Of a DNA stretch of 31,890 nucleotides, positions 10,667 through 31,890 are shown piece after piece. Under the pieces are notes generated by a model. It had not been told where the DNA came from. It saw nothing but the letters and a program-made list of their open reading frames with translations, and did not search any database. Every line of letters starts with the position of its first letter. The stretch's first letter is position 1. This DNA is from Armatimonadota bacterium (lineage in GTDB: Bacteria > Armatimonadota > Armatimonadia > Armatimonadales > Armatimonadaceae): assembly GCA_043754515.1 (NCBI GenBank), contig JAYUUO010000194.1, positions 1 through 31,890 of the forward strand. The letters are read 5' to 3'. A program made the position numbers and the translations under genes.

Positions 10667-10677
10667 GAAGTTAGAAT

Positions 10678-11052: not shown

Positions 11053-11056
11053 ATTT

Positions 11057-11464: not shown

Positions 11465-11589
11465 TCCGGCGACCGCCGGTACTTTATCTTTGTCGTCCGC
11501 GCGTCCGGCGCGGACGACACCCGTCTGAAAAATCAGACTCGTAAACCTATCGGACAGGGTAGACCCGCGATAGGGAGGAAGAGAAGCCA

Positions 11590-12249: not shown

Positions 12250-12349
12250 AGGCGCGGGTCGGGTTTGGGGAACGGCGGGAAGACGGGGCGGGGCAATCGG
12301 GCGTCGCCTGGCGGGTGTCTTTTCCCGCGAAAGGATTTAGAGAACACGT

Positions 12350-13378: not shown

Positions 13379-13403
13379 ACCTGCCGGTTAAGGAAGAAAA
13401 ACA

Positions 13404-13778: not shown

Positions 13779-13782
13779 CGCC

Positions 13783-14607
13783 GTGCGCCGCTTCCGGGTC
13801 ACCGTCGAGTACGACGGCACTGATTTCGCCGGGTTTCAGTCGCAGCCGGTCGGACTGCGGACGGTGCAGGGGACTCTGGAGGCGACGATCAAGCGGATGT
13901 CGGGGGCGGAGGCGCGGGTACACGGCGCGGGCCGTACCGACGCGGGGGTACACGCCACGGGGCAGGTCATCCATTTCGACACGGAATGGCCGATACCTCC
14001 CGGGCGAATCGCGTGGGCGTTGAACGGCGCGCTACCGGATGACGTGGTGGTACGCGACGCGGAGTGCGTGGGGGGCGGGTTTCATGCCCGCTTCTCGGCG
14101 ACCGCGCGGACATATCAGTACACCATCCTGAACCGGGAGGCGGGTTCCGCCATCCGAGGCAGATTCATGTGGCACGTGCGCGAATCGCTGGATCTCGCGG
14201 CGATGCGTGCGGCGGCGGTCGAACTGACCGGGGTACACGACTTCGCCACGTTCGGGCAAGCCGATCTGCCGGGAAAGTCCACGGTTCGTCACGTGGAATG
14301 GATTATCATTGACGGGGCCGATGACACAGTCCGGATCACGGTACGCGGGAACGCCTTTCTGAGGCAACAGGTGCGTGCCCTAGTCGGGACGTTGCAGCAG
14401 GCCGGTTTGGGCAAGCTCGGGGTAGCCGACGTGGTTGCCATCCGGGACAGCCGAGACCGGATACACTGTCCGGCGACAGCACCCGCGCGGGGGTTAGTCC
14501 TCGCGCTCGTAGAATATGACGGGACTCGTTTTACCCGACCGGGGGAAGTAGGCTACTATGCCGCGCCGGAAGGGACGGAGAAAGAAATAGGAAAGCCGAA
14601 TGAATAA
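13783..14607 (+). CDS. truA: tRNA pseudouridine(38-40) synthase
   Basis: EYDGTDFAGFQ, AGRTDAGVHA, FHARFSA, NAFLRQQVR, TAPARGL. Confidence 0.96.
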   Translation: MRRFRVTVEYDGTDFAGFQSQPVGLRTVQGTLEATIKRMSGAEARVHGAGRTDAGVHATGQVIHFDTEWPIPPGRIAWALNGALPDDVVVRDAECVGGGFHARFSATARTYQYTILNREAGSAIRGRFMWHVRESLDLAAMRAAAVELTGVHDFATFGQADLPGKSTVRHVEWIIIDGADDTVRITVRGNAFLRQQVRALVGTLQQAGLGKLGVADVVAIRDSRDRIHCPATAPARGLVLALVEYDGTRFTRPGEVGYYAAPEGTEKEIGKPNE

Positions 14608-15097
14608 AACCTACTCCGCCAAGCCGGCGGACATAGTACGTGACTGGCATATTATAGACGCGACGGGGAAGCCGGTCGGGCGTTTGTGTGTGGATGTCGC
14701 CAAATTATTGCGCGGGAAGCACAAGCCGATTTTCACCCCGAGCCTTGACACCGGGGATCACGTGATTATCATCAACGCGGAGCGGGCCATCTACACCGGT
14801 AATAACAAGCCGAAAGAGCCGATCTACCGGCACACGCTTTATCCGGGCGGTATCCGCCAGATCGCGCGCGGCGAGTTGCTAGCGACGCGGGCCGACTATG
14901 CCCTTTATCGTACGGTGAAAGGCATGCTCCCGCACAACAAACTCGGCGCGGCGATGCTGAAGAAACTTCGCGTCTACAAGGGCGACACCCATCCGCACGA
15001 AGCACAAATCAAGGGGATGGAAAATCGGAAGGCAGGCGTCTCGGTAGCGGTAGTTCCGGAAGCCCCGGACTTCGTGATGCAGGAGGCGCAAGGTTAA
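14600..15097 (+). CDS. rplM: 50S ribosomal protein L13
   Basis: [33 protein letters not shown]. Confidence 0.98.
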
Positions 15098-15101
15098 TAC
15101 T

Positions 15102-15497
15102 ATGGCAGAACTGAATCGCTACTACGGGACCGGCAAGCGCAAGAACGCGATCGCCAAGGTCTGGCTCATGCCCGGTGACGGCACGATCACGGTGAACAAC
15201 CGCACCGCGCAGGAGTATTTCCGGCGTGCGACGCTCGAAGCGTTGCTCTCGCAACCCTTCCGCGCCACGCAGACCGAAGGCCGCTACGCCGTGATGGTGA
15301 AGGCACTCGGCGGCGGGGTGTCGGGCCAGGCGGGCGCGGTGCGCCACGGCATCGCCAAAGCACTGATCGAGGCGGACCCGGAACTGCGCCCGGTGCTACG
15401 GCGCAACGGCTTCCTGACCCGCGACCCACGCGTCAAGGAATCGAAAAAGTACGGGCGCAAGCGCGCGCGGCGCGGGTTCCAGTTCAGCAAACGTTAG
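15102..15497 (+). CDS. rpsI: 30S ribosomal protein S9
   Basis: [43 protein letters not shown]. Confidence 0.98.
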
Positions 15498-17252: not shown

Positions 17253-18122
17253 CTACTTGATATGAAACGTCCCGAAGTAGTGACGCCCGTTGAACGTCAT
17301 CCCGTCGCTTTGCTTTGATTCCTCTCCTGGTATCGGCCCGATCTGTTGTTTCGTCACCGAATCAACCGCGCTTCTGCTCGCCGACTGGCGCGGGGGGAAG
17401 AAGATCGGGTCATCTATAGCACTCTGGCTCCCCTTAAACCACTTCACGTGCCCGTCGGCGAAGGCGAAGTTGCTACCACCCATGTAGCGGAATCGTGTCT
17501 CCTTGCCGACGGTCGCTCCCTGTCCTGGATCGCAGCCGCCGTGGGCGTTGAAGGAAGAGCCGAAGGGGCCTGTGCCTAGCGTCAGCGCATGTCCCGCGTT
17601 ACCGGGGCGGTTTTCCGCGCACGTAATCAGTACCGTCCGGCTGGGGTTGGTGAGCGCGTTCTGGGGCACCCCGTTTAGAAGGTCGTTGTACATGTAATAC
17701 AAGTCACCCTTCTTACCCGGAAGGCGTCCACCTCCCGGTGCGATGTACAGTTGGTCGCTCTTGACATAAGGATCGAGCAAACCCTGCGCAATTCGCCCGT
17801 CCGGGAGTATCCGGTTCGGCCCCCAACCCCGGGCAAACGACTCGTTCGTCTTATGCAATTCAGAGCCTGAAGAGGGAGGCACCTTGCTCGTGTAGCTGAC
17901 TGACGGCGGGAAGTGCCCGTCGTAGTCCTGCATATACTGCAGAAAGCCGAGCGCGATCTGTTTCTGATTCGAGGCGTCGCCCGCGCGGGAGGCACCTTCA
18001 TGTCTGTGCCTATCCCGATCGCCGGAAGAAAAAATGGCACATATGGCCATCACGATTACCAGTGAAAGCAGTATCTCGGTGAGCGTAAGCCCGCGCTGGC
18101 TACGAGGGGAGAGTGATACCAT
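17253..18122 (-). CDS. Divergent prepilin-type / DUF1559 protein with H-X9-DG-like motif
   Basis: QRG|LTLTE pilin-type site, SNQKQIALGFLQYMQDYD, RYMGGSNFAFADGHVKW. Confidence 0.85.
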   Translation of the reverse strand: MVSLSPRSQRGLTLTEILLSLVIVMAICAIFSSGDRDRHRHEGASRAGDASNQKQIALGFLQYMQDYDGHFPPSVSYTSKVPPSSGSELHKTNESFARGWGPNRILPDGRIAQGLLDPYVKSDQLYIAPGGGRLPGKKGDLYYMYNDLLNGVPQNALTNPSRTVLITCAENRPGNAGHALTLGTGPFGSSFNAHGGCDPGQGATVGKETRFRYMGGSNFAFADGHVKWFKGSQSAIDDPIFFPPRQSASRSAVDSVTKQQIGPIPGEESKQSDGMTFNGRHYFGTFHIK

Positions 18123-18140
18123 CGTTGTTCGTTCCTTTCT

Positions 18141-18184
18141 AAAAGCCGCTCGCGGCGGGTCGTGAACTTTTAACCCGCCGCGAG
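18141..18184 (-). terminator. Hairpin between the tandem DUF1559 genes
   Basis: 12-bp perfect stem CTCGCGGCGGGT / ACCCGCCGCGAG (18149-18184), then CGGCTTTT on the minus strand. Confidence 0.55.
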
Positions 18185-18208
18185 TGGTGTCCTCCGATCC
18201 GCCATGGC

Positions 18209-19047
18209 CTACCTGATGTAGAACGTCCCGGCGTAGGAACGCCCGTTGAACGTCATCTCGCCGCCCGGTTTCGGCCCGATCAGCCGCTTCGTTATCGGGT
18301 CAACCGCGCTCTTGCACGCCGACTGGCGCGGGGGGAAGAAGATCGGATCGTCTTGTGGGTCTTCGCTTCCCTTGAACCACTTCACGTGCCCGTCCGTAAA
18401 GGCAAAGTTGTTACCCCCTTTGTGACGGGACCGCGCGCCCCTGCCGACGCTCGCGCCCCTGTCCGCGTCGCAACCCCCGAGGGCGTTGAACGTGGCATAG
18501 GCCGGGTATGAGTCGAGCGAAAGAGAATGCCCCGCGTTAGCGATGCGGTCTTCCGCGCCGGTTATCAGCACCGTCAGTGATGGCGCGGCGATGGAGTCTG
18601 CTTGAACGTGTACGAGGAGGTCGTTGTACATGAACTCCAGGTTCGGCGGGACGACGGTGTATTTTCGTCCAGGCGTCACGTCTACAAACAGCTGGTTGCT
18701 TTTCGTGTAGGGCGAGAGTATCCCTGGAACTATCCGTCCGTCAATCGTTGTTCGATCCGGCCCCCAACTCTGTGTAACCGGCCCCAGCCTCCATCTACCC
18801 GCACGGTCTTGAAGCCGCATGTTTGCGTACCCCACGGCAGGAGGGAACCGGTCGTCATAGTCCTGGCAGTACTGAATGAAGCCGAGGGCAATCTGCTTCT
18901 GGTTAGAAGCGGCACTGGGACCACGACCGCATCTCTTCTTGCAAACAGGGAGTATAAGAACAACCCCAAAACAAACATGATGAGAACGCAGACGGTCAGC
19001 TCGGTGAGCGTAAACCCGCGTTTTGGATGATGAGATAATGATGGCAT
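18209..19047 (-). pseudogene. Frameshifted prepilin-type / DUF1559 paralog
   Basis: Frame 1 from ATG19047: MPSLSHHPKRG|FTLTELTVCVLIMFVLG. The -1 frame continues VVLILPVCKKRCGRGPSAASNQKQIALGFIQYCQDYDDRFPP...RHKGGNNFAFTDGHVKW. Switch at or near the TTTTGGGG tract (18964-18971). Confidence 0.85.
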
Positions 19048-19262: not shown

Positions 19263-20951
19263 CTACTTTTCGACCAGCACTTTTTCGCCGGTGCCGACGA
19301 GATCTGCCTTGTCAATCTCGATCACGCGCCGGATCATGCGCAGATCGTGCCGCGTCGGATCGGTCACCAGGTAGTTCTTGTCCGTCAACCCCTCGCCGCT
19401 ATAGCCGAACCGATCCTGAATGTTATCCGGGAACACGCGCGGGTTGAGCGACAGGATCAGTTCGTACTTGGGGCGACTGAACGAGTACATCGTCGGATCT
19501 TTGCTCATGTCGAACTGGCGCGAATACTCGCCCGGCTTTTCCGCGCTGGCTTGCGCCACCGAGTAATGCTTCTTATCCAGTTCCGCGAGCTTCGCGGTAT
19601 CTTTAACCAGTTGCGCGAATTTGGCTGTTGCCTCGGCGTCGGAGTAGAACGGCTCCGGGCTGTTATACGGCAGGGGATACGCGACGCTGACCGCCTGCTT
19701 CTTGCCCCACGGCGACAACTGGCTCAGGCCCTTCGACAGCGTCACGTTACCGAGTCCGTACGTTTTCACCTCGGCATCGGTGAACTGGTAGACGTTCGTG
19801 TTCTGTCCCGCCCGCTCCGCCGTGCTGGAAAACTTGCCCGCCGCGACGAACAGTCCGCCCTTCTCCGCGAGCTTACCATCGCGGGTCGAGATCTGATCCT
19901 GCATGATCGTTATGGTCTGATCAATGTCGAACGAGAACGCGCTCTGGGTGGGTTGCTTATAACCTTCGTCTTGCAACCGAACGTCAACGCGCGCGCCATC
20001 GGCGGGACCCGCGAGCAGTACGCCCTTGCCCGGCTTGGCGAGCGTACCCATGTCGAACGACTTGCCGGACGCACCCCAACACCGCCACGTGCCTTCGATC
20101 TTCAGCACCTTCGATTTGAGACGGGTCACCTTGCAGGTGAACTGGACATCAATCGGTGGCTTCGCGTTCTCGGCGCGTACCATCTTGCGGATCTGGAGGT
20201 GTTCCCAGTTCTTGCGGCTGGAGTTCAGGCCCGACTCGTTGCGCCCCTTATCTTCCGGCGACGTCTTCGGATCTTTGATACGCCGCTCATGCTCGTCAAT
20301 GACCGACTGCCACTGCTTCACCGCCTCGTCCGTGCGACCGGCCCGCTCCAGCGAATGCGCGAGGAGGTGTCCCACCTGCGTCACGTCGTAGTTCGGATCG
20401 GCCTTCACGCCGGATTGAAGCGTTTCGACGGACAGATCGTAGTCCTTAATCTTGTCGAACGCGTTCCAACCCTTCTCCTTGTACAAGTCGTAGACGTTCG
20501 AGTTGTTCGCGATGCCCTCGTTCAAGAGGGCCATGCCGGGACCCAGGTAACGCCGGTCGGAGCGCTGATCGGTGTCCGTGAAGTTGTACATGAGGTGCCA
20601 GGCACCGGTCGCGTACACGTCCAGCCAGTTCGGGTCGAGCCAGGTAATTAGGCGGATCATCGGTAAAATCGCGTCGTAGTTTCCCGAGTGGAAGAACTCA
20701 TCGGTGCGCACCCAGAGTAGCCCCGCGATCACCTGCCGGAAGCCAGTCAACGCGCCGAGGGTGTACTCGAACGGCAAGGTCACCGGGTTACCTTTGACAG
20801 TGAGCTCCCCGACTGTTTTCCCCACAGCCGGGGGCTGGATCGCGACTTGCATTCGGAGCGGATCAATTCCGTATTGAAGTACGAATACGCCGACCATTAA
20901 AGCGGCGGCGGTGCCCATCAGAGTGTTTTTCTGTTGATTAGTATAAGCCAT
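19263..20951 (-). CDS. Membrane-anchored TPR-like protein, PilG/XapA-like partner of the ABC transporter, with a long C-terminal domain of unknown function
   Basis: N-terminal TM helix; GFRQVIAGLLWVRTDEFFH...ITWLDPNWLDVY..GAWHL.YN...LLNEGIANN helical-repeat pattern; operonic with the ABC genes. Confidence 0.7.
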   Translation of the reverse strand: MAYTNQQKNTLMGTAAALMVGVFVLQYGIDPLRMQVAIQPPAVGKTVGELTVKGNPVTLPFEYTLGALTGFRQVIAGLLWVRTDEFFHSGNYDAILPMIRLITWLDPNWLDVYATGAWHLMYNFTDTDQRSDRRYLGPGMALLNEGIANNSNVYDLYKEKGWNAFDKIKDYDLSVETLQSGVKADPNYDVTQVGHLLAHSLERAGRTDEAVKQWQSVIDEHERRIKDPKTSPEDKGRNESGLNSSRKNWEHLQIRKMVRAENAKPPIDVQFTCKVTRLKSKVLKIEGTWRCWGASGKSFDMGTLAKPGKGVLLAGPADGARVDVRLQDEGYKQPTQSAFSFDIDQTITIMQDQISTRDGKLAEKGGLFVAAGKFSSTAERAGQNTNVYQFTDAEVKTYGLGNVTLSKGLSQLSPWGKKQAVSVAYPLPYNSPEPFYSDAEATAKFAQLVKDTAKLAELDKKHYSVAQASAEKPGEYSRQFDMSKDPTMYSFSRPKYELILSLNPRVFPDNIQDRFGYSGEGLTDKNYLVTDPTRHDLRMIRRVIEIDKADLVGTGEKVLVEK

Positions 20952-20977
20952 TGGTTTGAAAATCTTCTCTAAACGCG

Positions 20978-21766
20978 TCAGACCTCTTTGCGGTCGAAGG
21001 CCAGCACCGCGATGATCAACAACACCGCCGAGTACACTATCGAGTAGATGATGTTCTGCGCGACGAACAGTACCGGGCTGGTAACCTGGACGGTCGTGTT
21101 GAGCAGGGGGTTCGTGTAGTTAAAGTTGCCGAAGTTCGGCACGATATAATGAACCGCGCTGAAGAACGCCTTCGCGAGCGGGTTGCCCGCGTTCTTCGCC
21201 AGGTCGTAGGTCACCGGCGACATCGAGCCGATGATGAACAGCGACAGGGTGGCGAAGAAGTTGATCAGCGGAGGCGTGAACACCGACAGGAACACCGACA
21301 GCGAGCAGAGCAGGATCAACTGAAACAGGGTCAGTAGCACCTGGATCAGCAATAGCGGCGCGTCCACCACCTGGTGTCCGAGCGCCTGCTTGATGGCGAC
21401 CGCGATCACGAACAGGATGCCCATCAAGCCGATGTTGATGGAAACGGTGCCGATGGCACCGAGGTACTTGCCGAGCAAGAACTGGTACCGCGTGACTGGC
21501 TTGGACAGGATCGTGTAGATCGTGCGCCGCTCGAGTTCGGTCGGGATCAGGTAGATGGACAGGATCACCGAGATGAAAAGGCCAGCGAGCGAGATTACAC
21601 CCAGCCCCATGCCTTTGATGAGTGTCAGTTCCTGGCGGGCGGCGAAAGTGGTGAAAGAGAACATGAGAACGATCATCGCAAGCCCGACCATCAGAAAGGC
21701 GTTTAGGATCTTGCGGCGCATCGCTTCATTAATCGTGTTTCCGGCGATAACAAATGCTGTGTTCAT
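20978..21766 (-). CDS. ABC-2 type permease (PilI-like)
   Basis: IAGNTINEAMRRK, ELERRTIYTILSKPVTRYQFLLGKYLG, VPNF..FN, FDRKEV; about six hydrophobic segments. Confidence 0.9.
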   Translation of the reverse strand: MNTAFVIAGNTINEAMRRKILNAFLMVGLAMIVLMFSFTTFAARQELTLIKGMGLGVISLAGLFISVILSIYLIPTELERRTIYTILSKPVTRYQFLLGKYLGAIGTVSINIGLMGILFVIAVAIKQALGHQVVDAPLLLIQVLLTLFQLILLCSLSVFLSVFTPPLINFFATLSLFIIGSMSPVTYDLAKNAGNPLAKAFFSAVHYIVPNFGNFNYTNPLLNTTVQVTSPVLFVAQNIIYSIVYSAVLLIIAVLAFDRKEV

Positions 21767-21816
21767 GGCTTTTTTCGGGTGGGGCGGGATAGCCCCCTTT
21801 TCATTTCGTTGGGGAG

Positions 21817-22938
21817 TTACTTCCGCGCGAGATCCTTATACTTGTTCGCGCTCGCCTTCGGAGTGACTACCACGCCGACCGCTTTCGGGACATCCGCCGT
21901 GTCGTTCATTGACGGGGTGTTGTAGGACGCGGCACCGCCGGTCCCGTTCGCGGAAACGACTTCCGTGGTCGCGTTACCGCTATCATCTAACACGATGCGC
22001 TCGCCGACGACCTGTACGAACAGGTCTTCAAGCGTGCGCCGCTTCGGCTCGATGGACAGTATAGACGCTTCCGCGCGGCGGGCGGCGTCTATTACCGCGC
22101 TCACCGCCTCGGGCGTGTTGCGCATCGTGATGCTGGTGCGAGTGCCGTTGACCTGGATCTGACCGTCCTTCGCCGCCGAGCGGATCGTTTCGCCCAGCCC
22201 CGGCGTGACACCGGACAGCACGATCTCGACGAGTTCACCCGCTAGCAGTTCTTCGACGCTCCCTAGCACGCGCAATTTGCCCTTGTGGATGATGGAGACG
22301 CGGTGGCAGACGGCTTCGACGTCTTCCAGTTGGTGCGACGAAAGGAACATCGCCTTGCCCTGCCGCTTGAGTTCGAGCATCAGGTCGCGGATGTCGCGCC
22401 GCGCGATGGCGTCAAGCCCCGACGTCGGCTCGTCGTAGAACAACAGGTCCGGGTCGTTGATCAGCGATTGCGCGATGCCGACGCGCTGGCGCATACCTTT
22501 CGAGAACTCGTGGATGCGCTTGCCGCGGTCGCCTTTGCCGCCGAGTCCCACGAAGTCCACTAATTCCTCGGACTTCTTGCGGGCGTCTTCTCTCTTCATA
22601 CCGAACAACTGCGCATAGAAAGTCACTACTTCCATCGCAGTCATATGCTCGTAGAAGTAGGGCGATTCCGGCAAATAGGCGATGCGCTTTTTGACTTCGA
22701 TGTCACCGGCGGGCGCACCGAGAACGGTCGCTTCGCCGGCGGTGGGGTAGATGAGGCCGAGCAAAATCTTGATCGTGGTCGTTTTTCCGGCACCGTTCGC
22801 GCCGAGGAAGCCGAATATCTCGCCCTCCCCGATGTTGAGTGTCAGATTATCAACCGCGTTAACTACCTCGTTCTTGCGCGCGATCGGGTACTGCTTGGTC
22901 AGATTCTTAATAACAATGGCGTTTGCCGTATCGGGCAT
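21817..22938 (-). CDS. ABC transporter ATP-binding protein (PilH-like)
   Basis: Walker A GANGAGKTT, YLPESPYFY, signature FSKGMRQR, Walker B LLFYDEPTSGLD, SSH. Confidence 0.95.
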   Translation of the reverse strand: MPDTANAIVIKNLTKQYPIARKNEVVNAVDNLTLNIGEGEIFGFLGANGAGKTTTIKILLGLIYPTAGEATVLGAPAGDIEVKKRIAYLPESPYFYEHMTAMEVVTFYAQLFGMKREDARKKSEELVDFVGLGGKGDRGKRIHEFSKGMRQRVGIAQSLINDPDLLFYDEPTSGLDAIARRDIRDLMLELKRQGKAMFLSSHQLEDVEAVCHRVSIIHKGKLRVLGSVEELLAGELVEIVLSGVTPGLGETIRSAAKDGQIQVNGTRTSITMRNTPEAVSAVIDAARRAEASILSIEPKRRTLEDLFVQVVGERIVLDDSGNATTEVVSANGTGGAASYNTPSMNDTADVPKAVGVVVTPKASANKYKDLARK

Positions 22939-23269: not shown

Positions 23270-23275
23270 TACAAT
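23270..23275 (+). promoter_or_regulatory. -10 box of a putative leaderless promoter
   Basis: TACAAT, then 7 nt to ATG23283; no SD sequence. Confidence 0.5.
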
Positions 23276-23282
23276 GAAAGAC

Positions 23283-25268
23283 ATGTCCGACGCCGCTGTC
23301 ACCGCCGCTCCCACGCCGAAGCCGTCCGAAATCACGCCCCGCGCCGTTCTGCTCGGACTACTTCTGACTGTACTGAACGTAATCTGGGTGACGCAGGTCG
23401 AGGTGCGCTACTACATCCTGGATGGTTCCTCACTCCCGCTCTTCATTACGCCGATCTTTCTGCTCCTCGTGCTGGTCGCGGGGAACGCGCTGGCGCGGCT
23501 GTTCCCTGGCGGCGGGGGGCGAGCGTTGCGCCAGGAGGAGTTGCTCGTGGCGTATCTGATGGCGGTTATCTCGAACACGTTCGCGGGGCATGACATGCTC
23601 CAGAACCTGTTCGGACAGATCACGCACCCCTACTATTTCGCGCCGCAAAACGACTGGCAGGAGATTTTCATCGCGCGGCTCCCCGCTTTTCTGTTCGTGT
23701 CCGACCCCGAATCGCTCAAGTTCTGGTACCGGGGCAACGTCCCGCCGCAGACGGCGGCCGGCTACTTCGTCCACTGGAGCGTCCCGCTGGCATTATGGGG
23801 CGTGTTCTTCCTGGTGCTCGTGTTCCTGTTCGTCTGCATCACCGTGATAGTGCGCAAGGCGTGGACGGAGAACGAGAAGTTGTCGTTCCCCGTGATCCAG
23901 TTGCCGCTGGTGATGACGGAGCCGGGCGGGGCATTCTTCAAAAACCGGGTCATGTGGGCGGGGTTCTCCGCCGCCTTCGCGGTCGGGCTTGTGAACGGCA
24001 TGCACCAACTATTCCCGCAGATGCCGGAAAACCAGTGGATCAAGCTCTATGACGTCGGCCAGTACTTCACGCAGCCACCCTGGAACGCCATCCGCACCTA
24101 CGGCATGCAGACCTCGCTCTACCCGTTCGCCATCGGGCTGTCGTACCTTATACCGCTCGACCTGGCGTTCTCGTGCTGGTTCTCGTACCTGCTGGCGCGG
24201 GCGTACTTCGTGTTCGGTCGCGCGTCGGGGCTTGACGGGCCGTCCGCCGGGCAGGGCTGGCCCTACCTGAAGGAGATTTCGGCGGGCGCGTGGATCGGTG
24301 TCGCGGGCGCGATCCTGTGGGCGAACCGCCGCTACCTAGCGTATGCGTTCGACCGTGCTTTCGGGACGCGCCAGAGCGGGGGGTATGGGTTCCAGACGGA
24401 GGACGACCCGGTCGAGGATCGCCGCTACCGCTTCGCCTTTATCGGGGTCGCGTTCGGCGCGGCTTTCCTGCTCGCATGGGGCTACCTACTGGGCATCGCG
24501 GTCTGGGCGTCGGTCGCGTTCTTCGGGATCTTCTTCGCGCTGTCGCTCGCGATTACGCGGGTGCGCGCCGAGTTCGGCACCCCGCACGAGATCGTTTTCG
24601 TCAAGCCCGCCGACATTCTGGTCACGCTACTGGGCACTCGCGCCATCGGGGACGCGTCGCTGATTGGGATGCAGAGCATGTACTGGTTCAACCGGGGCTA
24701 CCGGTGCCACCCGATGCCGAACTTCCTGGAGGGGTTCAAAATCAGCGAGAACCGGCGTATGCCGTTCGCGCCGCTACTCGGCGTGTTCGCGCTGGCGGCG
24801 GTCGCCTCCCTCGTGACGACGTTCGCGGCCAACTACTTCACGACCTACTCTGCCGGGGCGCAGGCGAAGGCGATCGGCTATAAAATGTGGGTGGGGCAGG
24901 AGGCGTTCGGGCAACTCGCCGGCTGGCTGAAGAGCGGGCAGCGACCGGCGGAGCAGAGTTTCTGGTTCTTCCTCGGCGGGCTGGTGCTGGTTGGGCTGTT
25001 CGCGTATTTGCGGCAGGAGTTCCTCTGGTGGCCCCTGCACCCGACCGGGTTCGCGCTCGGTATATCGTACGCGATGAACTACTTCTGGTTCTGCGTCTTC
25101 GTCGCGTGGCTGGCGAAGCTGTGCATCACGCGGTACGGGGGGATGGAGGCGCACAAGCGGGCGTTGCCGTTCTTCCTGGGTCTGGTGCTGGGCGACTACA
25201 CGGTCGGCGCGATCTGGTCGTTATTCGGACTCTGGCTCGGCACCCCAACCTACAAGATATTCATCTAG
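23283..25268 (+). CDS. Polytopic membrane protein, DUF6785/DUF6784-type (putative transporter); alternative start 23274
   Basis: Many TM segments; EKLSFPVIQLP, AIGLSYLIPLDLAFSCWF, RVRAEFGTPH, WWPLHPTG, RYGG...PFFLGLVLGD. Confidence 0.75.
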   Translation: MSDAAVTAAPTPKPSEITPRAVLLGLLLTVLNVIWVTQVEVRYYILDGSSLPLFITPIFLLLVLVAGNALARLFPGGGGRALRQEELLVAYLMAVISNTFAGHDMLQNLFGQITHPYYFAPQNDWQEIFIARLPAFLFVSDPESLKFWYRGNVPPQTAAGYFVHWSVPLALWGVFFLVLVFLFVCITVIVRKAWTENEKLSFPVIQLPLVMTEPGGAFFKNRVMWAGFSAAFAVGLVNGMHQLFPQMPENQWIKLYDVGQYFTQPPWNAIRTYGMQTSLYPFAIGLSYLIPLDLAFSCWFSYLLARAYFVFGRASGLDGPSAGQGWPYLKEISAGAWIGVAGAILWANRRYLAYAFDRAFGTRQSGGYGFQTEDDPVEDRRYRFAFIGVAFGAAFLLAWGYLLGIAVWASVAFFGIFFALSLAITRVRAEFGTPHEIVFVKPADILVTLLGTRAIGDASLIGMQSMYWFNRGYRCHPMPNFLEGFKISENRRMPFAPLLGVFALAAVASLVTTFAANYFTTYSAGAQAKAIGYKMWVGQEAFGQLAGWLKSGQRPAEQSFWFFLGGLVLVGLFAYLRQEFLWWPLHPTGFALGISYAMNYFWFCVFVAWLAKLCITRYGGMEAHKRALPFFLGLVLGDYTVGAIWSLFGLWLGTPTYKIFI

Positions 25269-25387
25269 AAACTCCCCCTGTTGGCTCCGGTGAACCCGGT
25301 TCCTCCCAATTCAGAGTTATCGCTGGTTCAATGGGACATTCCCTTCCGTGGAGCGGCTAACGGCGCGGGTATACCTTACAATGAGGA

Positions 25388-26461
25388 ATGACCGATAAAC
25401 CATATCCGACCCCTGTCACCCTACGCGATGTTGCCGCGCGGGCGGGCGTCAACGCGACCACTGTTTCCGTGGTAACCAATGGGAGCAGGTCCGGTACCCG
25501 CGTTTCCGCCGCAACCCGTGAACATATTCTCGCCGTCGCCGCCGAACTCGGATACCGCCCGAATATAGCGGCTCGTGGCATCAAACACCGGCGCATGAAC
25601 TCGCTCGGCGTAGTGGACATCATGCACACCAAAGGGTTGAACCTCTATTTCCTCGAAGTGCTGAATGGCATTCTTGAGAAGGCGGGCGATCGAGAGCAGA
25701 ACACGACTGTCTTCACGCTCGCCAACTGGCAGACGGAGGAGGAGAAGATACTACAGTTCTGCGATGGCCGCGTAGACGGCTTGATTTTGGTGGGGCCGCA
25801 GTTCCGCGCCGAGTTTGCCCAGATACTATCCCGCCGAATCCCGTTCGTCGCCCTGCACAGTAATATAGTGCTCCCCGTCGCGGCAACCCTTGAGGTTGAC
25901 GACGAGCAGGGCGGATACCTGGCCACGAGGCATCTGCTAGAGTTGGGACACCGGAGGATCGCGCACTTCGGGGGACAGGAGCACTTCTCCGGGGCGTCGC
26001 GTCGGCGCGACGGCTACTTCCGTGCGCTCGCGGAAGCCGGGATCGCCTGCGAGGAGTCACTCGTGTTGAAGGGCGCGTTCGAGTCGCCGTCCGGGCGGGA
26101 ACAGATGGGACGGCTCCTGTCCCTGGATCCGCCGCGCCCGACCGCCGTCTTTTGCGCCAACGACCCGATCGCCTTCGGGGCTATGGAGGTTCTGGCGGAA
26201 CAAGGGATTCCAGTGCCGACCGCGATGAGCGTCGTCGGCTTCGACGATTCCTTGGTCGCACGAATGACGAACCCGCACCTGACCACGATCCGGCAACCAT
26301 TCCGACAGATGGGGCAACATGCGGTCGAACTACTTCTGCAACAGATCAGCAACAACGCTGTCAGTGCGAACGCCATCACGGAGGCGAGGGTGATCCGCGA
26401 GATGTTCCCTGTGGAACTAATCGTGCGCGGCTCAACTTGCAGGCTATCCTCCAACGCGTAG
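25388..26461 (+). CDS. LacI-family transcriptional regulator
   Basis: VTLRDVAARAGVNATTVS HTH, LGYRPN, LGHRRIA, PTAVFCAND, SVVGFDD, LTTIRQP. Confidence 0.96.
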   Translation: MTDKPYPTPVTLRDVAARAGVNATTVSVVTNGSRSGTRVSAATREHILAVAAELGYRPNIAARGIKHRRMNSLGVVDIMHTKGLNLYFLEVLNGILEKAGDREQNTTVFTLANWQTEEEKILQFCDGRVDGLILVGPQFRAEFAQILSRRIPFVALHSNIVLPVAATLEVDDEQGGYLATRHLLELGHRRIAHFGGQEHFSGASRRRDGYFRALAEAGIACEESLVLKGAFESPSGREQMGRLLSLDPPRPTAVFCANDPIAFGAMEVLAEQGIPVPTAMSVVGFDDSLVARMTNPHLTTIRQPFRQMGQHAVELLLQQISNNAVSANAITEARVIREMFPVELIVRGSTCRLSSNA

Positions 26462-26502
26462 AAGGGGAGCAAAATGTTTACGGAAAGAATTGTGGTCGGC
26501 CC

Positions 26503-26531
26503 TTGACAAATCGCGGTTCTTTCTGTAGACT
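26503..26531 (+). promoter_or_regulatory. Sigma70 promoter of the DUF1559-led glycan locus
   Basis: TTGACA-N17-TAGACT. Confidence 0.8.
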
Positions 26532-26532
26532 G

Positions 26533-26548
26533 GAACCAACGTTAGTTC
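26533..26548. promoter_or_regulatory. LacI-type operator overlapping the transcription start
   Basis: Near-palindrome GAACCAACGTTAGTTC (14 of 16 positions symmetric, central CG), directly downstream of the lacI-family gene. Confidence 0.75.
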
Positions 26549-26619
26549 ACTATCGTTTTGCGACGCACTGCTTGCGTTAATATCCGTTTGAAGACAAGCG
26601 AAAGGTATCTTTTTCCGCC

Positions 26620-27381
26620 ATGCAATCCCTTCCTACCGTTCACAAGTCCGCCCGACGAGGCTTCACGCTAATCGAACTACTTGTTGTAATAGCCATTATC
26701 GCCATCCTTGCCGCGATTTTGTTTCCAGTGTTCGCACAAGCTCGTGAGAAAGCCCGCGCCACCACGTGCCTCTCCAACGAGAAGCAGATCGGCCTAGCCA
26801 TCATACAGTACGTCCAGGACTACGACGAGACGTTCCCGCTCTCCGAGTTCGCCGCCAACACCGCTAGCCCGGGGTACACCTGGGAAAACGCCATCCAGCC
26901 CTACGTCAAGGCGGGGACCGCCAACGGCACTTATTCCGTAACTGGCGCGATATGGGTTTGCCCTTCCTTCGCGCACGCGGAAGAAACGGAGCAATACAAA
27001 GGGCTAGATAACGTCTTCGCGTGGTCAGCCAATGAGCCGATCGCTTATGCAAAAGTAGACGAGCCTTCCAACAAAATCATGGTATTCGAGGGCGGTAGTA
27101 ATTACCCGGCGGGCGACCCTAGCAACTGGGGCTATCGTGACTCGACCAGCGCGGAGTGGTTCTGGACGAGCGACAAAAACACGAATGCCGCTTTCGCCAA
27201 AGATTGTGACGGCACGATGCCGGGAAATTGGTCCGGCTGTAACCGATACCCGCGCTACCGACACAATGGCACCAGCAACTTCGTCTTCATTGATGGTCAC
27301 GTGAAAGGAATGCCGAAAGGTCGGCTATCCTGGTACGTGAACATTTGGAACCCGCAGGTGAACGACCCGAATCCCTGGTAG
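26620..27381 (+). CDS. Prepilin-type N-terminal cleavage/methylation plus DUF1559 / H-X9-DG protein
   Basis: [35 protein letters not shown]...[42 protein letters not shown]. Confidence 0.95.
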
Positions 27382-27483
27382 TCCGCGATCCGGAAATGGA
27401 TCGTACGCCCGCACCCGCCTTCGCTCCCGTCTGAGGCGGGTCGGGACCCTCTCGACAAATGCACAGGATACTCTCTCAATAGA

Positions 27484-27738
27484 ATGACAAGAACGATTTT
27501 TTTCACCGCCGGGATCATGCTTTCGGCCATCCTTATAACCGGTTGCCAGAAGCCTTCGGAAGTAACCGGAGAGGTTTCGCCATCCAGAAGTGACAGTTCG
27601 ACTCCCATACTGCACGCCCCTCCGTCCAACGTATCGCCGGAAGTCAAGGCGCGGATCGAGCAGGAGCAGGCACAGTTCCGCCAGCGATCCGAGGAGCAGG
27701 CGAAGCAGTCCGCGAGACAGGTTGGGCCGAAAAAGTAG
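27484..27738 (+). CDS. Small lipoprotein
   Basis: Lipoprotein signal MTRTIFFTAGIMLSAILITG|C; Gln/Glu-rich helical tail. Confidence 0.75.
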   Translation: MTRTIFFTAGIMLSAILITGCQKPSEVTGEVSPSRSDSSTPILHAPPSNVSPEVKARIEQEQAQFRQRSEEQAKQSARQVGPKK

Positions 27739-27772
27739 TCTGCCCTGAACGATATACTCTTACGAGGAGAAC

Positions 27773-28387
27773 ATGATACCTATGCGAATTATTTTGAAAC
27801 CTTCCGGTCTGGTAATCATGGTTGCAGTACTTGCCGCGCTGACTCTTGTAGCCGTAAATACGCAGAACAAGAAAGCCCCTGTTTCGGAGGGGTTGCGTCT
27901 ACCGTCTCCCGACTCCGGAGGAATCGTCTACGATGGCGCGCTACGAAACGACTGGTCGGACTTCAGCTGGGCGAAGACCGATTTAAAGAACGCTGTCATA
28001 TCGGCTCCGGGGCTTTGTATCCGGGTCGCGCCGAACAAGTTCGAGGCGGCTTATTTTCATCATGTCCCGATGAGCATCGCTTCGTATGACCGGTTGGCGT
28101 TCCGTATTAACGGTGGGGATACGGGCGGGCAAAAGCTGAGACTGGTCGCCCGTTACATCAAGAACAAAGAAGAAAAGAATGGCACCGAGTATATCCTGCC
28201 CACCCCGCTATCGAAACGGTGGATGTCGTTGACAGTGACATTGGCCGAACTCGGGGTCGCTGAGCAGCCGAACTTTACCGGCTTCTGGATTCAGGAGGGG
28301 GGCGGCGAGACCGCGTCTCCGTTCTACATAGACGATCTACGGTTTTTGCGTCCGGGGGATCCCGCGCCTTCGGATGCGGGGAAATGA
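27773..28387 (+). CDS. Membrane-anchored carbohydrate-binding-module-like (galactose-binding-like fold) protein
   Basis: N-terminal TM; IVYDGALRNDWSDFSWA, LAFRINGG..GGQKL, W..LTVTLAELG, FYIDDLRF; SD GAGGAG. Confidence 0.7.
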   Translation: MIPMRIILKPSGLVIMVAVLAALTLVAVNTQNKKAPVSEGLRLPSPDSGGIVYDGALRNDWSDFSWAKTDLKNAVISAPGLCIRVAPNKFEAAYFHHVPMSIASYDRLAFRINGGDTGGQKLRLVARYIKNKEEKNGTEYILPTPLSKRWMSLTVTLAELGVAEQPNFTGFWIQEGGGETASPFYIDDLRFLRPGDPAPSDAGK

Positions 28388-28563
28388 AACCCGTCGCGAC
28401 AAGCCGCGACATACCTTGCCGGTGGGCGACGTAGCAGTCCGAGGAGAGAACCGTGCCGTCCGAAAGCGTCACGGACGTTCCCAACTCGATATGGCGCAAC
28501 ATCTCTTGGTATTCACCCACCCTGGTTCCAACGAATAAAAATAGTTTTGTGGTCTCTTCTTTC

Positions 28564-28593
28564 TTGCCTTCGCGGGTGTAGCAATCGTAAACT
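28564..28593 (+). promoter_or_regulatory. Putative leaderless promoter of the GH42 gene
   Basis: TTGCCT-N18-TAAACT, then 6 nt to ATG28600; no SD sequence. Confidence 0.6.
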
Positions 28594-28599
28594 GACAGC

Positions 28600-30705
28600 A
28601 TGATGCAAAAAACTCTGGAAACGTCGCCCACACTCATGCTGTCGCGCGTCCTTCACGGCGGCGATTACAACCCGGAACAGTGGCCCCTGTCTGTTCGGGA
28701 CGAAGATGCGCGGCTGATGGGCGAGGCCCGCTGGAATGTGGCCACGCTCCCCGTCTTCGGCTGGGCGGCACTCGAACCGGAAGAGGGTGTTTACACTTTC
28801 GATTGGCTCGACCGCGTTCTAGACGGACTGCATCAAAAGGGAATCCGCGTCTGCCTCGCCACCGCGACGGCGGCGCAACCGGCATGGCTGGATCAGCGAT
28901 ACCCCGATGTTCTGGTAACAGGTGAGAGCGGCGTCAGGGCGCGGCATGGCAACCGGCACGCGTTCTGCCCGAACTCGGCGAATTTCCGGCGGCTGTCTAC
29001 CGCGCTCGTTCGCGCCATCGCCAAGCGGTACAAGGACCACCCCGCGCTGACCCTCTGGCACATCGGCAACGAGTACGGCACGGTCTGCTACTGCGACGCG
29101 AACTGCGCCCCGGCGTTCCGCGACTGGCTCCGGTCGAAGTACGGCACGCTGGACGAGCTGAACCGACTCTGGTACACGAGTTTCTGGGGACACATATTCA
29201 CCGACTGGTCGCAGGTAGAACCGCCGACACTCCACGGCGAGCGGAGCATGAACTCCCAGCGCCTCGACTACCAGCGGTTCCAGTCCGACAGTATGCTAGA
29301 TTGCTTCCTCGCGGAAAAGCAGGTGTTACGCGAGATCACGCCCCATATCCCCGTGACCACGAACTTGATGGGCGCGTTCTTCCCGCTCAACTACCGGAAA
29401 TGGGGCGAGGCCATGGACATCGTTTCGTGGGACAACTACCCCGGCCCCAATTCACCGCCCGCGCACATCGCGTTCACGCACGCACTGATGCGCGGCCTCA
29501 AGGAAGGTGCCCCGTTTCTTCTGATGGAGCAGTCGCCGTCGCAACAGAACTGGCAACCCTACAACGCAATCAAGCCGCCGCGCCAGCTACGCCTCCAGTC
29601 GTTTCAGGCGGTCGCGCAAGGCTCCGACTCGGTCATGTATTTCCAGTGGCGGCGGGGCCGGGGCGGTATCGAGAAGTTGCACGGCGCGGTGATGGAACAC
29701 CACGGCAGAACCGACGCCCGTGTTTTCCGCGAAGTCGCCGCACTGGGCGAAGATTTGGAGCACCTCGGGGACGAGACTCTGGGCGGGCGGGTCGCGGCGC
29801 GGGTCGCCCTGCTCTTCGACTGGGAGAACTGGTGGAACCTGCGCTTCGGCTCCGGCCCGTCCGTTGATCTGGACTACCACCGCGAAGTGCGCGAAGTCTA
29901 CGCCGCCCTACACAAACTCGGCATTCAATGCGAGGTGGTCGCGCCGGACGCGGATCTCGCCCGTTTCGATCTCGTAATCGCGCCGACCCTGAACCTGATC
30001 CGCGAGCGTGATGGGAAGGCGTTACAGACGTACGTTCGGGACGGCGGCACGCTCCTCGCCACGGTGTTCACGGGATTAGTGAACGCACACGACCTCGCGT
30101 ACGAGAACGGCGCGCCGGGGCCGTTCTCGGAAGTGCTGGGCTTGTGGGTCGAGGAGACGGACGCGCTACCGAAGGGGAAGACGAACGGCGTCCGGTTCGC
30201 GGGCGACTTCGGCGGGGTCGGTAGGGGACGGGTGCTCACGGCGACGCTGCTCTGCGACCGCATCCGCCCGACGTCCGCCGAAACGCTCGCGGTCTATGCC
30301 GACGATTTCTACGCGGGCGAGCCGGCATTCACCCGCAACGTCTTCGGCAATGGCTCTGGCTATTACCTGGCGACGAGCCTCGACGAGGCGGGGAACACCG
30401 CGCTTCTCGCCGCCCTATGCGCGACGCTCGGGATCGGCTCGCCCCTCGGGGGCGGTGCCGCGCCGCCGGAAGGCGTGGAGGTCACGGAACGTGTGTCGCC
30501 ATCCGGGACGAGCATTCTTTATCTTCTGAACCACTCTGGGGAGACTCGAACCGCGCGCCTCGCCGAGGGCGTATCGTACACGGATCTTCTGACCGGTAGT
30601 TCCGTGCGCGGCGAAGCGGTTCTGGAGAAGCGCGATGTGCAAGTCCTGCGGAGACACTCGGCGGGGACCGCGAGTCGAAACCCTGGTTCACGATTAAAAT
30701 CATGA
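28600..30705 (+). CDS. Beta-galactosidase, GH42
   Basis: GGDYNPEQW, LATATAAQPAW, WHIGNEY (acid/base), SWDNYP, FLLMEQ (nucleophile), YFQWR...EKLHGA. Confidence 0.96.
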   Translation: MMQKTLETSPTLMLSRVLHGGDYNPEQWPLSVRDEDARLMGEARWNVATLPVFGWAALEPEEGVYTFDWLDRVLDGLHQKGIRVCLATATAAQPAWLDQRYPDVLVTGESGVRARHGNRHAFCPNSANFRRLSTALVRAIAKRYKDHPALTLWHIGNEYGTVCYCDANCAPAFRDWLRSKYGTLDELNRLWYTSFWGHIFTDWSQVEPPTLHGERSMNSQRLDYQRFQSDSMLDCFLAEKQVLREITPHIPVTTNLMGAFFPLNYRKWGEAMDIVSWDNYPGPNSPPAHIAFTHALMRGLKEGAPFLLMEQSPSQQNWQPYNAIKPPRQLRLQSFQAVAQGSDSVMYFQWRRGRGGIEKLHGAVMEHHGRTDARVFREVAALGEDLEHLGDETLGGRVAARVALLFDWENWWNLRFGSGPSVDLDYHREVREVYAALHKLGIQCEVVAPDADLARFDLVIAPTLNLIRERDGKALQTYVRDGGTLLATVFTGLVNAHDLAYENGAPGPFSEVLGLWVEETDALPKGKTNGVRFAGDFGGVGRGRVLTATLLCDRIRPTSAETLAVYADDFYAGEPAFTRNVFGNGSGYYLATSLDEAGNTALLAALCATLGIGSPLGGGAAPPEGVEVTERVSPSGTSILYLLNHSGETRTARLAEGVSYTDLLTGSSVRGEAVLEKRDVQVLRRHSAGTASRNPGSRLKS

Positions 30706-31890
30706 AAAATGTAATATCACTCTTTATCGCGGGCGTCCTGCTCGCCGGAACGGGCGGGACTATCTACGCGATCGTCGGCAGGTCGGGCGCGAAGCCGGAC
30801 ACGTCTCCGACCCATCCCGCCGCTTACGCCTGGAAAAACGTGGTCATACGCGGCGGTGGCTTCGTCTCCGGGATCATCACGCACCCGAAGGAGCGCGGCT
30901 TGATGTACGCGCGAACCGATGTCGGTGGTGCCTATCGGTGGGACGAACGGGCGAAGCGGTGGGTGTGCCTTACCGACCGCTTCGGGGGACCGGAATGGAA
31001 CTACACGGGCATCGAAAGCCTCGCCGTTGACCCGATGAATGCAAAGAAGGTCTACATCGCGGCGGGCACGTATACGAACGACTGGGCGGGAAACGGTGCG
31101 ATCCTGCGCTCGTCCGATCGGGGCGACACGTGGCGGGTGACGCCGCTCCCGTTCAAGAACGGCGGGAACGAGGACGGACGATCCGCGGGCGAGCGGCTCG
31201 CGGTTGACCCGAACCAGCCCGCGAACCTGCTCTTCGGCTCGCGCAACAACGGACTCTTGCGGAGTCTCGATTCGGGCGTGACCTGGAACCCCGTGGCGAG
31301 TTTCCCGGTGAAGGGCAAAACGAACGGCATTGGCACCGTGTTCCTACTCTTCGACGCCAGCACCGGCAAGCCGGGCGCGGGAACGAAAACGATCTACGCG
31401 GGCGTTTCTGACAAGACGACCGCGCTGTACCGGAGCGCGGACGGCGGCGCGACCTGGAACGCCGTCCCCGGCCAGCCGAAGGGGTTTCTGCCGCACCACG
31501 GAATCCTCTCTGCGGATGGCTCGCTCTATGTGACATACGGAAACGCGCCGGGTCCCAACGGCATAACGGACGGCGCGGTATGGAAAATGAGCCGGAAGAC
31601 CGGCGCGTGGTCGGATGTGACGCCGCTCAAGCCGGGCGGCGGCGATAACTTCGGCTACGCGGGGGTCTCCGTGGACGCGAAATCGCCCGGCACGCTCGTG
31701 GTCACCACGATGGATCGCTGGGCAAGGCACGACACGATCTTCCGCACCACGAACGGCGGCAAGAGTTGGAACGACATCGGCCCGCTGTCGGAACGGGACG
31801 CATCCCTCGCGCCGTTCCTCAAGTGGGGCAGACAGACACCCGACGTCGGGCACTGGATGGGCGACATCGAGATTGATCCGTTCAACCCTG
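30702..31890 (+). CDS. GH74 xyloglucanase-like beta-propeller; runs off the window and is absent from the ORF track
   Basis: ATGA overlap with the GH42 stop; MKNVISLFIAGVLLAG...YAWKNVVIRGGGFVSGII...YARTDVGGAYRW...GGNEDGRSAGERLAVDPN...GHWMGDIEIDPFNP; Asp-box repeats. Confidence 0.93.
   Translation, partial: MKNVISLFIAGVLLAGTGGTIYAIVGRSGAKPDTSPTHPAAYAWKNVVIRGGGFVSGIITHPKERGLMYARTDVGGAYRWDERAKRWVCLTDRFGGPEWNYTGIESLAVDPMNAKKVYIAAGTYTNDWAGNGAILRSSDRGDTWRVTPLPFKNGGNEDGRSAGERLAVDPNQPANLLFGSRNNGLLRSLDSGVTWNPVASFPVKGKTNGIGTVFLLFDASTGKPGAGTKTIYAGVSDKTTALYRSADGGATWNAVPGQPKGFLPHHGILSADGSLYVTYGNAPGPNGITDGAVWKMSRKTGAWSDVTPLKPGGGDNFGYAGVSVDAKSPGTLVVTTMDRWARHDTIFRTTNGGKSWNDIGPLSERDASLAPFLKWGRQTPDVGHWMGDIEIDPFNP

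Follow-up and report, generated by a model that had tools for sequence, protein, structure and literature searches.

A LacI-controlled locus of xyloglucan type in an Armatimonadota bacterium is headed by a DUF1559 protein of predicted pilin fold

Our analysis of a 31,890-nt stretch of DNA from an Armatimonadota bacterium of the family Armatimonadaceae (assembly GCA_043754515.1, contig JAYUUO010000194.1; hereafter the window) indicates that, in a locus at its end (positions 25388-31890), xyloglucan-type enzymes are headed by a DUF1559 protein with the predicted fold of a type IV pilin, together with a small lipoprotein and a carbohydrate-binding module (CBM), all of them behind a LacI-family repressor. 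The regulation and the coupling of these genes are well supported. As to function, we favour a sugar-induced pilus subunit that aids glycan capture, and give this reading about an even chance; binding, assembly and uptake are predicted activities. The window is the complete contig (C194) of a genome assembly (G000) of 5.13 Mb that is 92.7% complete. The genes run in the order lacI, operator, DUF1559, lipoprotein, anchored CBM8-like protein, GH42 and GH74 (GH, glycoside hydrolase), the last cut by the contig end. Open reading frame (ORF) calls and family scans of 25388-31890 reproduce the gene positions and the shared plus-strand orientation given in an initial annotation of this DNA. The features are listed below (aa, amino acids).

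23274..25268, plus strand: DUF6785/DUF6784 polytopic membrane protein, 664 aa (Pfam; predicted OPT/YSL fold), a candidate whose membership of the locus is uncertain.
25314..25329, no strand assigned: second operator-like palindrome, 5' of lacI (14.7 bits; rank 9 of the 44 genome sites above 11 bits).
25388..26461, plus strand: LacI-family repressor, 357 aa (PF00356 and PF13377).
26503..26531, plus strand: sigma-70-type promoter TTGACA-17-TAGACT (10 of 12 consensus matches).
26533..26548, no strand assigned: LacI-type operator, a CG-centred palindrome directly 3' of the -10 box (top site of the genome, 22.9 bits).
26620..27381, plus strand: DUF1559 protein, 253 aa, with prepilin leader and predicted type IV pilin fold (PF07596, E 6e-15; TIGR02532; PF07963).
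27413..27441, plus strand: GC-rich hairpin (inverted repeat I13) without U-tract between the DUF1559 and lipoprotein genes, not called as a terminator.
27484..27738, plus strand: small predicted lipoprotein, 84 aa (lipobox-like LITG-C21 read from sequence; no Pfam match).
27782..28387, plus strand: membrane-anchored CBM8-like protein, alternative start 27773 (match to 7t7y; one N-terminal hydrophobic helix).
28600..30705, plus strand: GH42 beta-galactosidase, 701 aa (three GH42 Pfam domains; 3tts, E 1e-206).
30702..31890, plus strand: GH74 xyloglucanase, N-terminal 396 aa, cut by the contig end (2cn2, E 3.5e-110).

What is the evidence for sugar control? The repressor carries both the helix-turn-helix and the sugar-binding domain of its family. 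The promoter is not significant by scanning alone (3 such sites against 2.0 +/- 1.4 in shuffled sequence), and the orthologous locus L301, from a genome of the same genus (G001), has a TTGACA...TATAAT promoter with an operator at the same place. The palindrome at 26533-26548 is unique genome-wide at up to 2 mismatches, and four other genomes have similar CG-centred palindromes in the promoters of their orthologous loci. When a matrix built from 8 sites of other genomes, the window excluded, is run over the 5.1 Mb, this palindrome comes first with 22.9 bits, the next site scoring 18.6. Thus the palindromic operator behind the promoter and the control by LacI, both put forward in the initial annotation, hold up, and the regulation of the operon is well supported, the repressor being predicted to bind this operator and to be released by sugar. 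Palindromes like the one at 25314-25329 precede lacI in L301, L353, L354 and L344, and the window's site is likely to serve lacI autoregulation. In L353 operator sites occur only before lacI and the genes through GH74 are closely spaced, which favours one regulon; GH42 of the window would be co-transcribed with its operon.

The association of DUF1559 with LacI extends over the whole genome. PF07596 gives 64 matches and our own profile 71 genes (3 short pilins and 1 false match dropped), of which 56 are full length. A DUF1559 gene lies within 1.5 kb of 23 of the 28 PF13377 regulators compared with 45 of 1090 same-size genes (Fisher p 1.6e-25), one of the 23 being a downstream gene under the Pfam cut-off. 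An artefact of a seeded profile was considered and rejected, the result being repeated with PF13377. Lipoprotein-like ORFs follow 21 of the 56 full-length copies compared with 12 of 400 random genes, by a pattern that makes about three false calls and misses some visible lipoproteins. Among LacI-led copies a GH or lyase-like gene is present in 11 of the 21 loci examined (window included), and one has an ATP-binding cassette (ABC) importer; the signal from carbohydrate-active enzymes (CAZymes) therefore sits in the LacI-led copies, not in all DUF1559 neighbours.

The same picture emerges from relatives, the named homologous loci being nearly all from Armatimonadota. In the 28 best homologous loci, which were picked by likeness to the window and include kin that are not independent, LacI lies within 1.5 kb in 23 and a similar lipoprotein ORF follows in 24. 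In a wider set, 120 of 206 distinct loci have enough flanking sequence, with 47 LacI-led and 35 with a lipoprotein. A GH or polysaccharide lyase is found among the first two downstream genes in 20 of 39 LacI-led loci compared with 12 of 42 other DUF1559 loci (those with a co-oriented downstream gene, four of them fetched for GH74 or as best match); GH proteins make up 2 of 128 control proteins of the window genome.

The prepilin-like reading of the initial annotation, which had proposed structure prediction as a check, is confirmed and extended to a predicted fold. The leader is basic, with an N-methyl motif, a cleavage site at G14/F15, E19 and a hydrophobic helix; TIGR02532 and PF07963 match above cut-off, and F15-T-L-x-E19 is invariant in 120 of 120 homologues. 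At the C-terminal end stands an H-X9-DG motif. The model, predicted from 120 homologues, has a pLDDT (predicted local distance difference test) of 91, a long helix at 17-67 and strands at 218-232. Among 48,161 solved chains, the first 21 ranks are taken up entirely by pilins and pseudopilins; the best match has a Z of 5.2 and spans residues 15-243 (121 aligned, root-mean-square deviation (rmsd) 3.6). No solute-binding-protein or lectin fold stands among the listed structural matches, unlisted families remaining possible, and a sequence search of the PDB matched the pilin helix alone. It is the uniform ranking together with the invariant class III signal that leads us to predict a type IV pilin fold rather than a solute-binding fold; the score itself is not high. 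The Pfam name SBP_bac_10 implies a binding protein; the model is accounted for by the pilin fold.

Expression data come from Fervidibacter sacchari, another member of the Armatimonadota, in rows of supplementary files 3 and 5 of PMC11535203, covering 8 glycans; DUF1559 has 0 occurrences in the main text of that paper. In the rows of the RNA-seq table, 12 of 30 DUF1559 entries vary at least 5-fold across the glycans, up to 43-fold, compared with 1 of 25 rows pulled by near accession, which are not a random background. WP_259096448 (LacI), ...451 (DUF1559) and ...453 (hypothetical) peak jointly on starch (log r 0.96 and 1.00), and the DUF1559 protein ...092436 tracks the LacI-type ...092439 on beta-glucan, xyloglucan and locust bean gum (log r 0.91). 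Crossed LacI/DUF1559 pairs are negative. Gene adjacency is here inferred from accession order, and the proteome sheet lists 20 DUF1559 proteins. As far as these rows go, they show that Fervidibacter LacI-DUF1559 sets are switched by particular glycans, and they lend indirect support to the predicted release of LacI from its site by sugar.

How could these parts work together? We propose that a xyloglucan fragment would release LacI from the operators before lacI and DUF1559. Prepilin peptidase would cut at G14/F15, and the subunit would join a filament built in trans by PilB, PilC and secretin genes, that is, by the cell's shared type IV pilus; outside the locus the genome has 5 secretin matches, 4 PilC/GspF genes, 1 prepilin peptidase, 3 PilB/GspE-like ATPases and several PilT-like genes. 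The lipoprotein would be a likely assembly or tethering partner, and the pilus subunit would help hold polysaccharide at the cell. The anchored CBM8-like module may bind the beta-1,4-glucan backbone, which exported GH74 would cut; oligosaccharides would cross the inner membrane through a permease, for which the adjacent OPT-fold DUF6785 protein is the nearest candidate, and cytoplasmic GH42 would remove galactose. The pilin slot itself is interchangeable, different DUF1559 subfamilies filling it in orthologous loci. The type IV filament-like capture system proposed in the initial annotation thus gains from the pilin fold, the machinery elsewhere in the genome and the glycan-dependent expression in Fervidibacter, and loses in substrate specificity.

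That loss becomes clear from the orthologous loci. The locus in G001 (L301) has the complete order from DUF6785 through GH74; L353, from another genus, has LacI, DUF1559, lipoprotein, GH42 and GH74, and L354, from another family, has GH31, LacI, DUF1559 and GH74. The LacIs of four xyloglucan loci fall in one six-member clade with full support (SH-aLRT, the Shimodaira-Hasegawa-like approximate likelihood ratio test, 100; quick tree of 33 rows). The head of the DUF1559 protein is 43.5% identical in the same-genus orthologue compared with 70-75% for LacI, GH42 and GH74. Some heads do cluster by glycan, namely those of GH18 loci and of several GH74-like loci around L353, and head and LacI similarity track weakly (Mantel r 0.19, p 0.001, 73 pairs), which co-inheritance can partly explain.

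Several observations count against our reading, and the heads provide the first. Those of the four xyloglucan loci lie in three separately supported clades (34 rows out of 74; like the LacI tree, a quick search with SH-aLRT support only), and a single xyloglucan-specific clade is rejected by the approximately unbiased (AU) test (p-AU 1.4e-35). The heads of L353 and L354 are 26-27% identical to the window's, which is at background. The substrate-specific subunit of the initial annotation is weakened accordingly: the DUF1559 slot is conserved in the orthologous xyloglucan loci without a xyloglucan-specific pilin lineage, and a preference for a given glycan, if there is one, would be broad or would have arisen more than once. 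Nor does the xyloglucanase need DUF1559: of the 20 GH74-orthologue loci examined, most have none in the neighbourhood. Within the genome, 26 of the 56 full-length copies have neither a LacI neighbour nor a detected lipoprotein, and GH genes among all DUF1559 neighbours are not significantly enriched (13 of 240, with 240 of the 252 neighbours taken in by the Pfam scan and one GH74 label coming from BLAST, against 2 of 128 controls; p 0.097). The enrichment that the initial annotation had made a check of therefore stands for LacI and lipoprotein coupling and for CAZymes behind LacI-led copies, but not for GH over all neighbours.

Further points of this kind concern the model, the operator and the enzymes. 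A Z of 5.2 is at a level that the tool says can reflect a common arrangement, and Foldseek with the DUF1559 model returned nothing under E 1e-3. The literature searched gave no binding, assembly or uptake data for any DUF1559 protein. The matrix scan finds no operator-like site above 5 bits before DUF6785 or in the 212-bp gap before GH42, and this gap has no sigma-70 consensus, so that the separate GH42 promoter of the initial annotation is not confirmed. On the same scan, an operator of GH42's own and a place for DUF6785 in the LacI regulon were both rejected. Finally, no clear GH31 alpha-xylosidase was found in the window genome (one weak match), G001 or G015 (85-93% complete).

Could the DUF1559 protein handle enzymes, and not sugar? 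It may be an operon-specific pseudopilin or adaptor of type II secretion that exports or displays GH74 and the CBM protein. Its top structural matches include EpsG and PulG, which tie with pilins; the genome encodes several secretins as well as GspE/GspF-like proteins; and a source database names one homologue "DUF1559 family PulG-like", a putative transporter. Most LacI-led copies precede enzymes with signal-like N-termini, and swappable heads suit a role that does not read sugar. However, a single pseudopilin set serves many substrates in the known type II systems, an ABC importer or no enzyme at all stands behind some LacI-led copies, and the starch-induced Fervidibacter trio has no GH among its accession neighbours (first 4 places of each term in those supplementary rows). 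On balance we regard this account as unlikely, with a chance well worth keeping in view.

A second account turns on transport. A Pfam scan of 25388-31890 detects no SusC, SusD or ABC binding protein, as the initial annotation had said of the visible part. Genome-wide there are 2 TonB receptors and 0 SusD matches in the 92.7% complete assembly, and 20 ABC permease matches, none of them on C194 or on C206, a contig considered below. The further statement of the initial annotation, that the locus is led by the DUF1559 protein and a lipoprotein rather than by a recognisable transporter, stands for SusC/SusD and ABC proteins in the visible part but is qualified by an OPT-fold gene that abuts the locus, a sister DUF6785 gene in G001 and an ABC importer in the paralogous locus L023. 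The abutting gene, 120 bp upstream of lacI and not mentioned in that annotation, encodes DUF6785/6784. Its model (pLDDT 87) matches barley YS1 by Foldseek (7wst, E 5e-9, TM 0.63; 7wsr, 2e-8), these being the only two matches under 1e-3, with the next at 0.12; PF03169 is found on 11% of a similar Atlas cluster. The likeness to OPT/YSL transporters (PDB 7WSR/7WST) is one of whole-chain fold, at 13% identity and rmsd 7 A. The known substrates of OPT/YSL transporters are metal chelates and peptides, whereas sugar transport by DUF6785 is suggested by its neighbours only. G001 also has a sister copy of the locus, with 93.6% identity across 468 nt, in which another DUF6785 gene comes right after GH74. 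The upstream gene is syntenic in G001 only and stands beside neither L353 nor L354, nor the loci in G015 and G323. Given this absence beside L353 and L354, and with no operator of its own, we take it as a candidate and not an established part: a candidate inner-membrane oligosaccharide importer by its predicted structure. Of 71 genomes examined from the order, 58 have DUF6785/6784, each with between 2 and 19 matches, and 9 of 22 DUF6785 neighbours picked for scanning are GH domains (GH125, GH130, GH76, GH38, GH26 and GH2-type; L360-L389).

With such a permease at hand, the DUF1559 protein could stay in the inner membrane by its pilin helix and act as a periplasmic binding protein, handing oligosaccharides to the OPT-fold DUF6785 protein or to an ABC permease, with no filament at all. 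The proximity of the two families (a DUF1559 gene is found within 4 kb of 3 of the 6 DUF6785 genes, compared with 34 of 366 same-size genes; p 0.012) and the frequent flanking of GH genes by DUF6785 genes would be explained. So would the Trp-rich head, with 5.4% Trp compared with a genome mean of 1.3% and slightly more Trp in LacI-led copies (3.3% compared with 2.6%, p 0.04), and, from the part of PMC8567305 available, the Tuwongella N_methyl+SBP_bac_10 proteins, which fractionate differently from plain pilins. On the other hand, no solute-binding-protein fold is among the listed matches, the ABC locus L023 already has its own binding protein, and the loci in G015 and G323 have no DUF6785 next to them. 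Both Glu5 and the cleavage motif are moreover invariant, as expected for polymerising subunits, and we consider this account improbable. Least probable, to our minds a slender chance, is a role as variable adhesin or as subunit of a surface coat, which would be regulated together with sugar genes so as to attach the cell to plant particles or vary its surface, and would neither bind nor take up glycan. This would suit the fast divergence of the head, the swapping of DUF1559 occupants between orthologous loci, the many copies that adjoin housekeeping genes and the lower GC of the DUF1559, lipoprotein and CBM genes (0.55-0.57 against 0.62-0.65), but leaves unexplained why 23 of 28 sugar repressors keep a DUF1559 copy and why heads track LacI in a weak but non-random way.

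We return to the glycan-capturing pilus subunit and to the substrate it would serve. The xyloglucan-type enzyme set of the initial annotation is supported by the GH74 match to the solved xyloglucanase 2cn2, over a Pfam BNR-repeat, and by the GH42 match to 3tts. GH74 has an N-terminal hydrophobic helix and keeps the first catalytic Asp (the residue changed in entry 2cn3), the second-propeller Asp falling beyond the contig end. GH42 has no N-terminal hydrophobic stretch by hydropathy and is likely cytoplasmic. GH74 orthologues elsewhere sit with GH31, GH3, GH2 or GH42, and a GH31 alpha-xylosidase and a GH3 beta-glucosidase adjoin them in L344, L354 and L347; the window locus has neither, and the one GH3 of its genome is unlike the enzyme of the orthologous loci. 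G000, G001 and G015 are the three genomes with the LacI-DUF1559-GH42-GH74 arrangement, and their assemblies are all without a clear GH31. The available part of PMC4780118 describes a xyloglucan cluster of Ruminiclostridium cellulolyticum with Xgh74A, an ABC importer, Gal42A, Xyl31A and Glu3A. The locus resembles it in having GH74 outside, a signal-less GH42 inside and, here by prediction, oligosaccharide import between them and xyloglucan induction. It differs in the absence of an ABC importer, GH31 and GH3 from the locus, in its LacI regulator, in the pilin-fold gene, lipoprotein and stand-alone CBM that lead the operon, and in that the cell has an outer membrane, the genome carrying LpxC, LpxD and Omp85.

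The predicted 84-aa lipoprotein behind DUF1559 consists of a low-complexity linker and a polar, helix-like C-terminus; small-lipoprotein ORFs beside DUF1559 genes have about 1.5% aromatics across 64 ORFs. For the protein at 27782-28387, in which Pfam did not detect a CBM, DdCBM8 (7t7y) matches with E 1.3e-9 alone and 4.9e-22 as profile; CBM30 and SGBP-B identities were Atlas leads only, the CBM30-type profile match being weak (probability 33%), and CBM8 replaced both. DdCBM8, from Dictyostelium, binds xyloglucan according to the part of PMC9079177 available. Its binding residues W572/W574/Y600/Q686 align to F61/W63/F87/Q171, so that an aromatic platform and Gln are kept in kind. The likeness to DdCBM8 (PDB 7T7Y) thus lies in the sequence match and these residues, whereas the window protein is stand-alone, sits on a family-restricted N-terminal anchor, has Phe at two of the three aromatic sites and is only predicted to bind. 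Most of its top 150 homologues are modules of larger proteins; 19 of the 150 have the M[RK]II[LI]KPxG start and are at most 251 aa. If its N-terminal helix stays uncleaved, the module would lie in the periplasm, and long chains would then have to reach that compartment.

The anchor itself recurs. M[RK]II[LI]KPxG with a hydrophobic helix (27782-27895 of the window) heads 13 small proteins of this genome with varied CBM-like C-domains (further examples at L016:6314-6427 and L059:2211-2324), 7 of the 13 within 2 kb of a DUF1559 gene. It is present in 8 of 13 genomes of the bacterium's own family and 0 of 19 of the sister family, all matches elsewhere being weaker than E 0.001, and is possibly an undescribed anchoring or sorting signal. 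A paralogous LacI-DUF1559-lipoprotein-CBM8-like module is found at G000:C98:30160-33478 (L016), followed by GH9 and GH38. The head of its DUF1559 protein clusters with that of the window (SH-aLRT 96), and because of this the three-gene module may have moved between glucan loci.

How does the locus compare with known systems? Bacteroidota polysaccharide utilisation loci consist of SusC/SusD with surface glycan-binding proteins. The locus shares with them one sugar sensor and one set of binding protein and enzymes per glycan, repeated many times per genome. Unlike them, it has no TonB-dependent transporter or SusD in the locus, and its genome has no SusD match and 2 TonB receptors elsewhere; the repeated element is a pilin-fold protein whose lineage does not follow the glycan. 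In the Akkermansia MUL2 locus, as far as the available part of PMC13174399 describes it, PilM and a pilin-like protein are linked to mucin uptake; both cases tie type IV pilus components to glycan attachment, with periplasmic accumulation, outside Bacteroidota. However, the four genes of MUL2 form a single conserved machinery locus, with a pilin of archaeal type, whereas the present type is a many-copy, repressor-controlled DUF1559 cassette with its machinery elsewhere; we set them apart by description, a Pfam scan of the locus having found no PilM or MUL2A-type pilin gene and the proteins not having been compared directly. In the planctomycete Tuwongella, DUF1559 (N_methyl + SBP_bac_10) paralogues are expanded, with flanking genes that carry type I or II signal peptides (PMC8567305). 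The Pfam pair, the expansion and the signal-peptide neighbours are alike, but in the available text of that paper these proteins are not linked to sugar repressors, to operators or to glycoside hydrolases, nor is a fold given. PMC5352709, in the part available, merely names the DUF1559 domain. The literature searched, with most subscription journals outside it, holds no LacI-controlled DUF1559 cassette, no tie of DUF1559 to glycan uptake and nothing on DUF6785/DUF6784. The parts and their logic are thus known, and the pilin-based front end is undescribed in the literature searched.

A bolder version can be stated, although we doubt it and hold it as a speculation with a small chance of being right. 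A retractile type IV pilus would replace SusC/SusD in Armatimonadota: each sugar would switch on its own DUF1559 subunit, the filament would draw long chains through the secretin, periplasmic CBMs on a family-specific inner-membrane anchor with swappable modules would hold them, GH74-type enzymes would cut, and OPT-fold DUF6785 would be a new class of oligosaccharide permease.

Some observations concern the remainder of the window and other DUF1559 copies. No contig of the assembly overlaps the end of C194, and in two low-cover sequencing runs no listed piece extends it. The end of contig C206 carries the likely C-terminal 115 aa of GH74, 62% to the G001 tail, similarity being the sole basis, and the next gene there is on the opposite strand. 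Of the genes beyond 31890, where the initial annotation had allowed for a conventional transporter, we thus have a likely GH74 tail followed by an opposite-strand gene and no ABC permease match on C206, the stretch between the contigs being unseen. Within the window, 3711-15497 is an ordinary ribosomal protein, secY, adk and rpoA cluster by Pfam. Two more divergent DUF1559-like ORFs lie in tandem at 17253-18835 on the minus strand, with weak PF07596 matches, the upstream one without a prepilin start in the gene call used; they are preceded by an ABC exporter pair and by a membrane-anchored protein of 562 aa without Pfam match (19263-22938). Elsewhere, at L023:2461-8058 (G000:C150), LacI and DUF1559 are followed by an ordinary ABC importer for sugars, made up of two permeases and a family-1 sugar-binding protein. 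Some non-LacI copies, in L024, L005, L012, L025 and L026, stand beside genes for a TonB receptor with ExbB, for NMT1-type and Peripla_BP_2 binding proteins, and for HupE/UreJ and ZIP transporters, a hint that DUF1559 may serve the capture of nutrients other than sugars. In the assembly, several DUF1559 genes (G000:C19, C118, C174, C48, C197 and C254) are short or split, and an intact LacI still precedes some of them.

In Armatimonadota and Planctomycetota, few protein families of unknown function have expanded as much as DUF1559, and our analysis bears on how polysaccharide degraders with few TonB receptors move glycans across the outer membrane. The clade test carries the warning that DUF1559 sequence will not predict the glycan. 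As side leads, DUF6785/6784 emerges as an OPT-fold permease family often beside glycosidases, and stand-alone CBMs as having a family-restricted membrane anchor. Through this locus, one DUF1559 gene has a defined operator, partner genes and a likely inducer, which makes the family testable, and a cultured strain, Fervidibacter, already has published glycan-switched DUF1559 copies.

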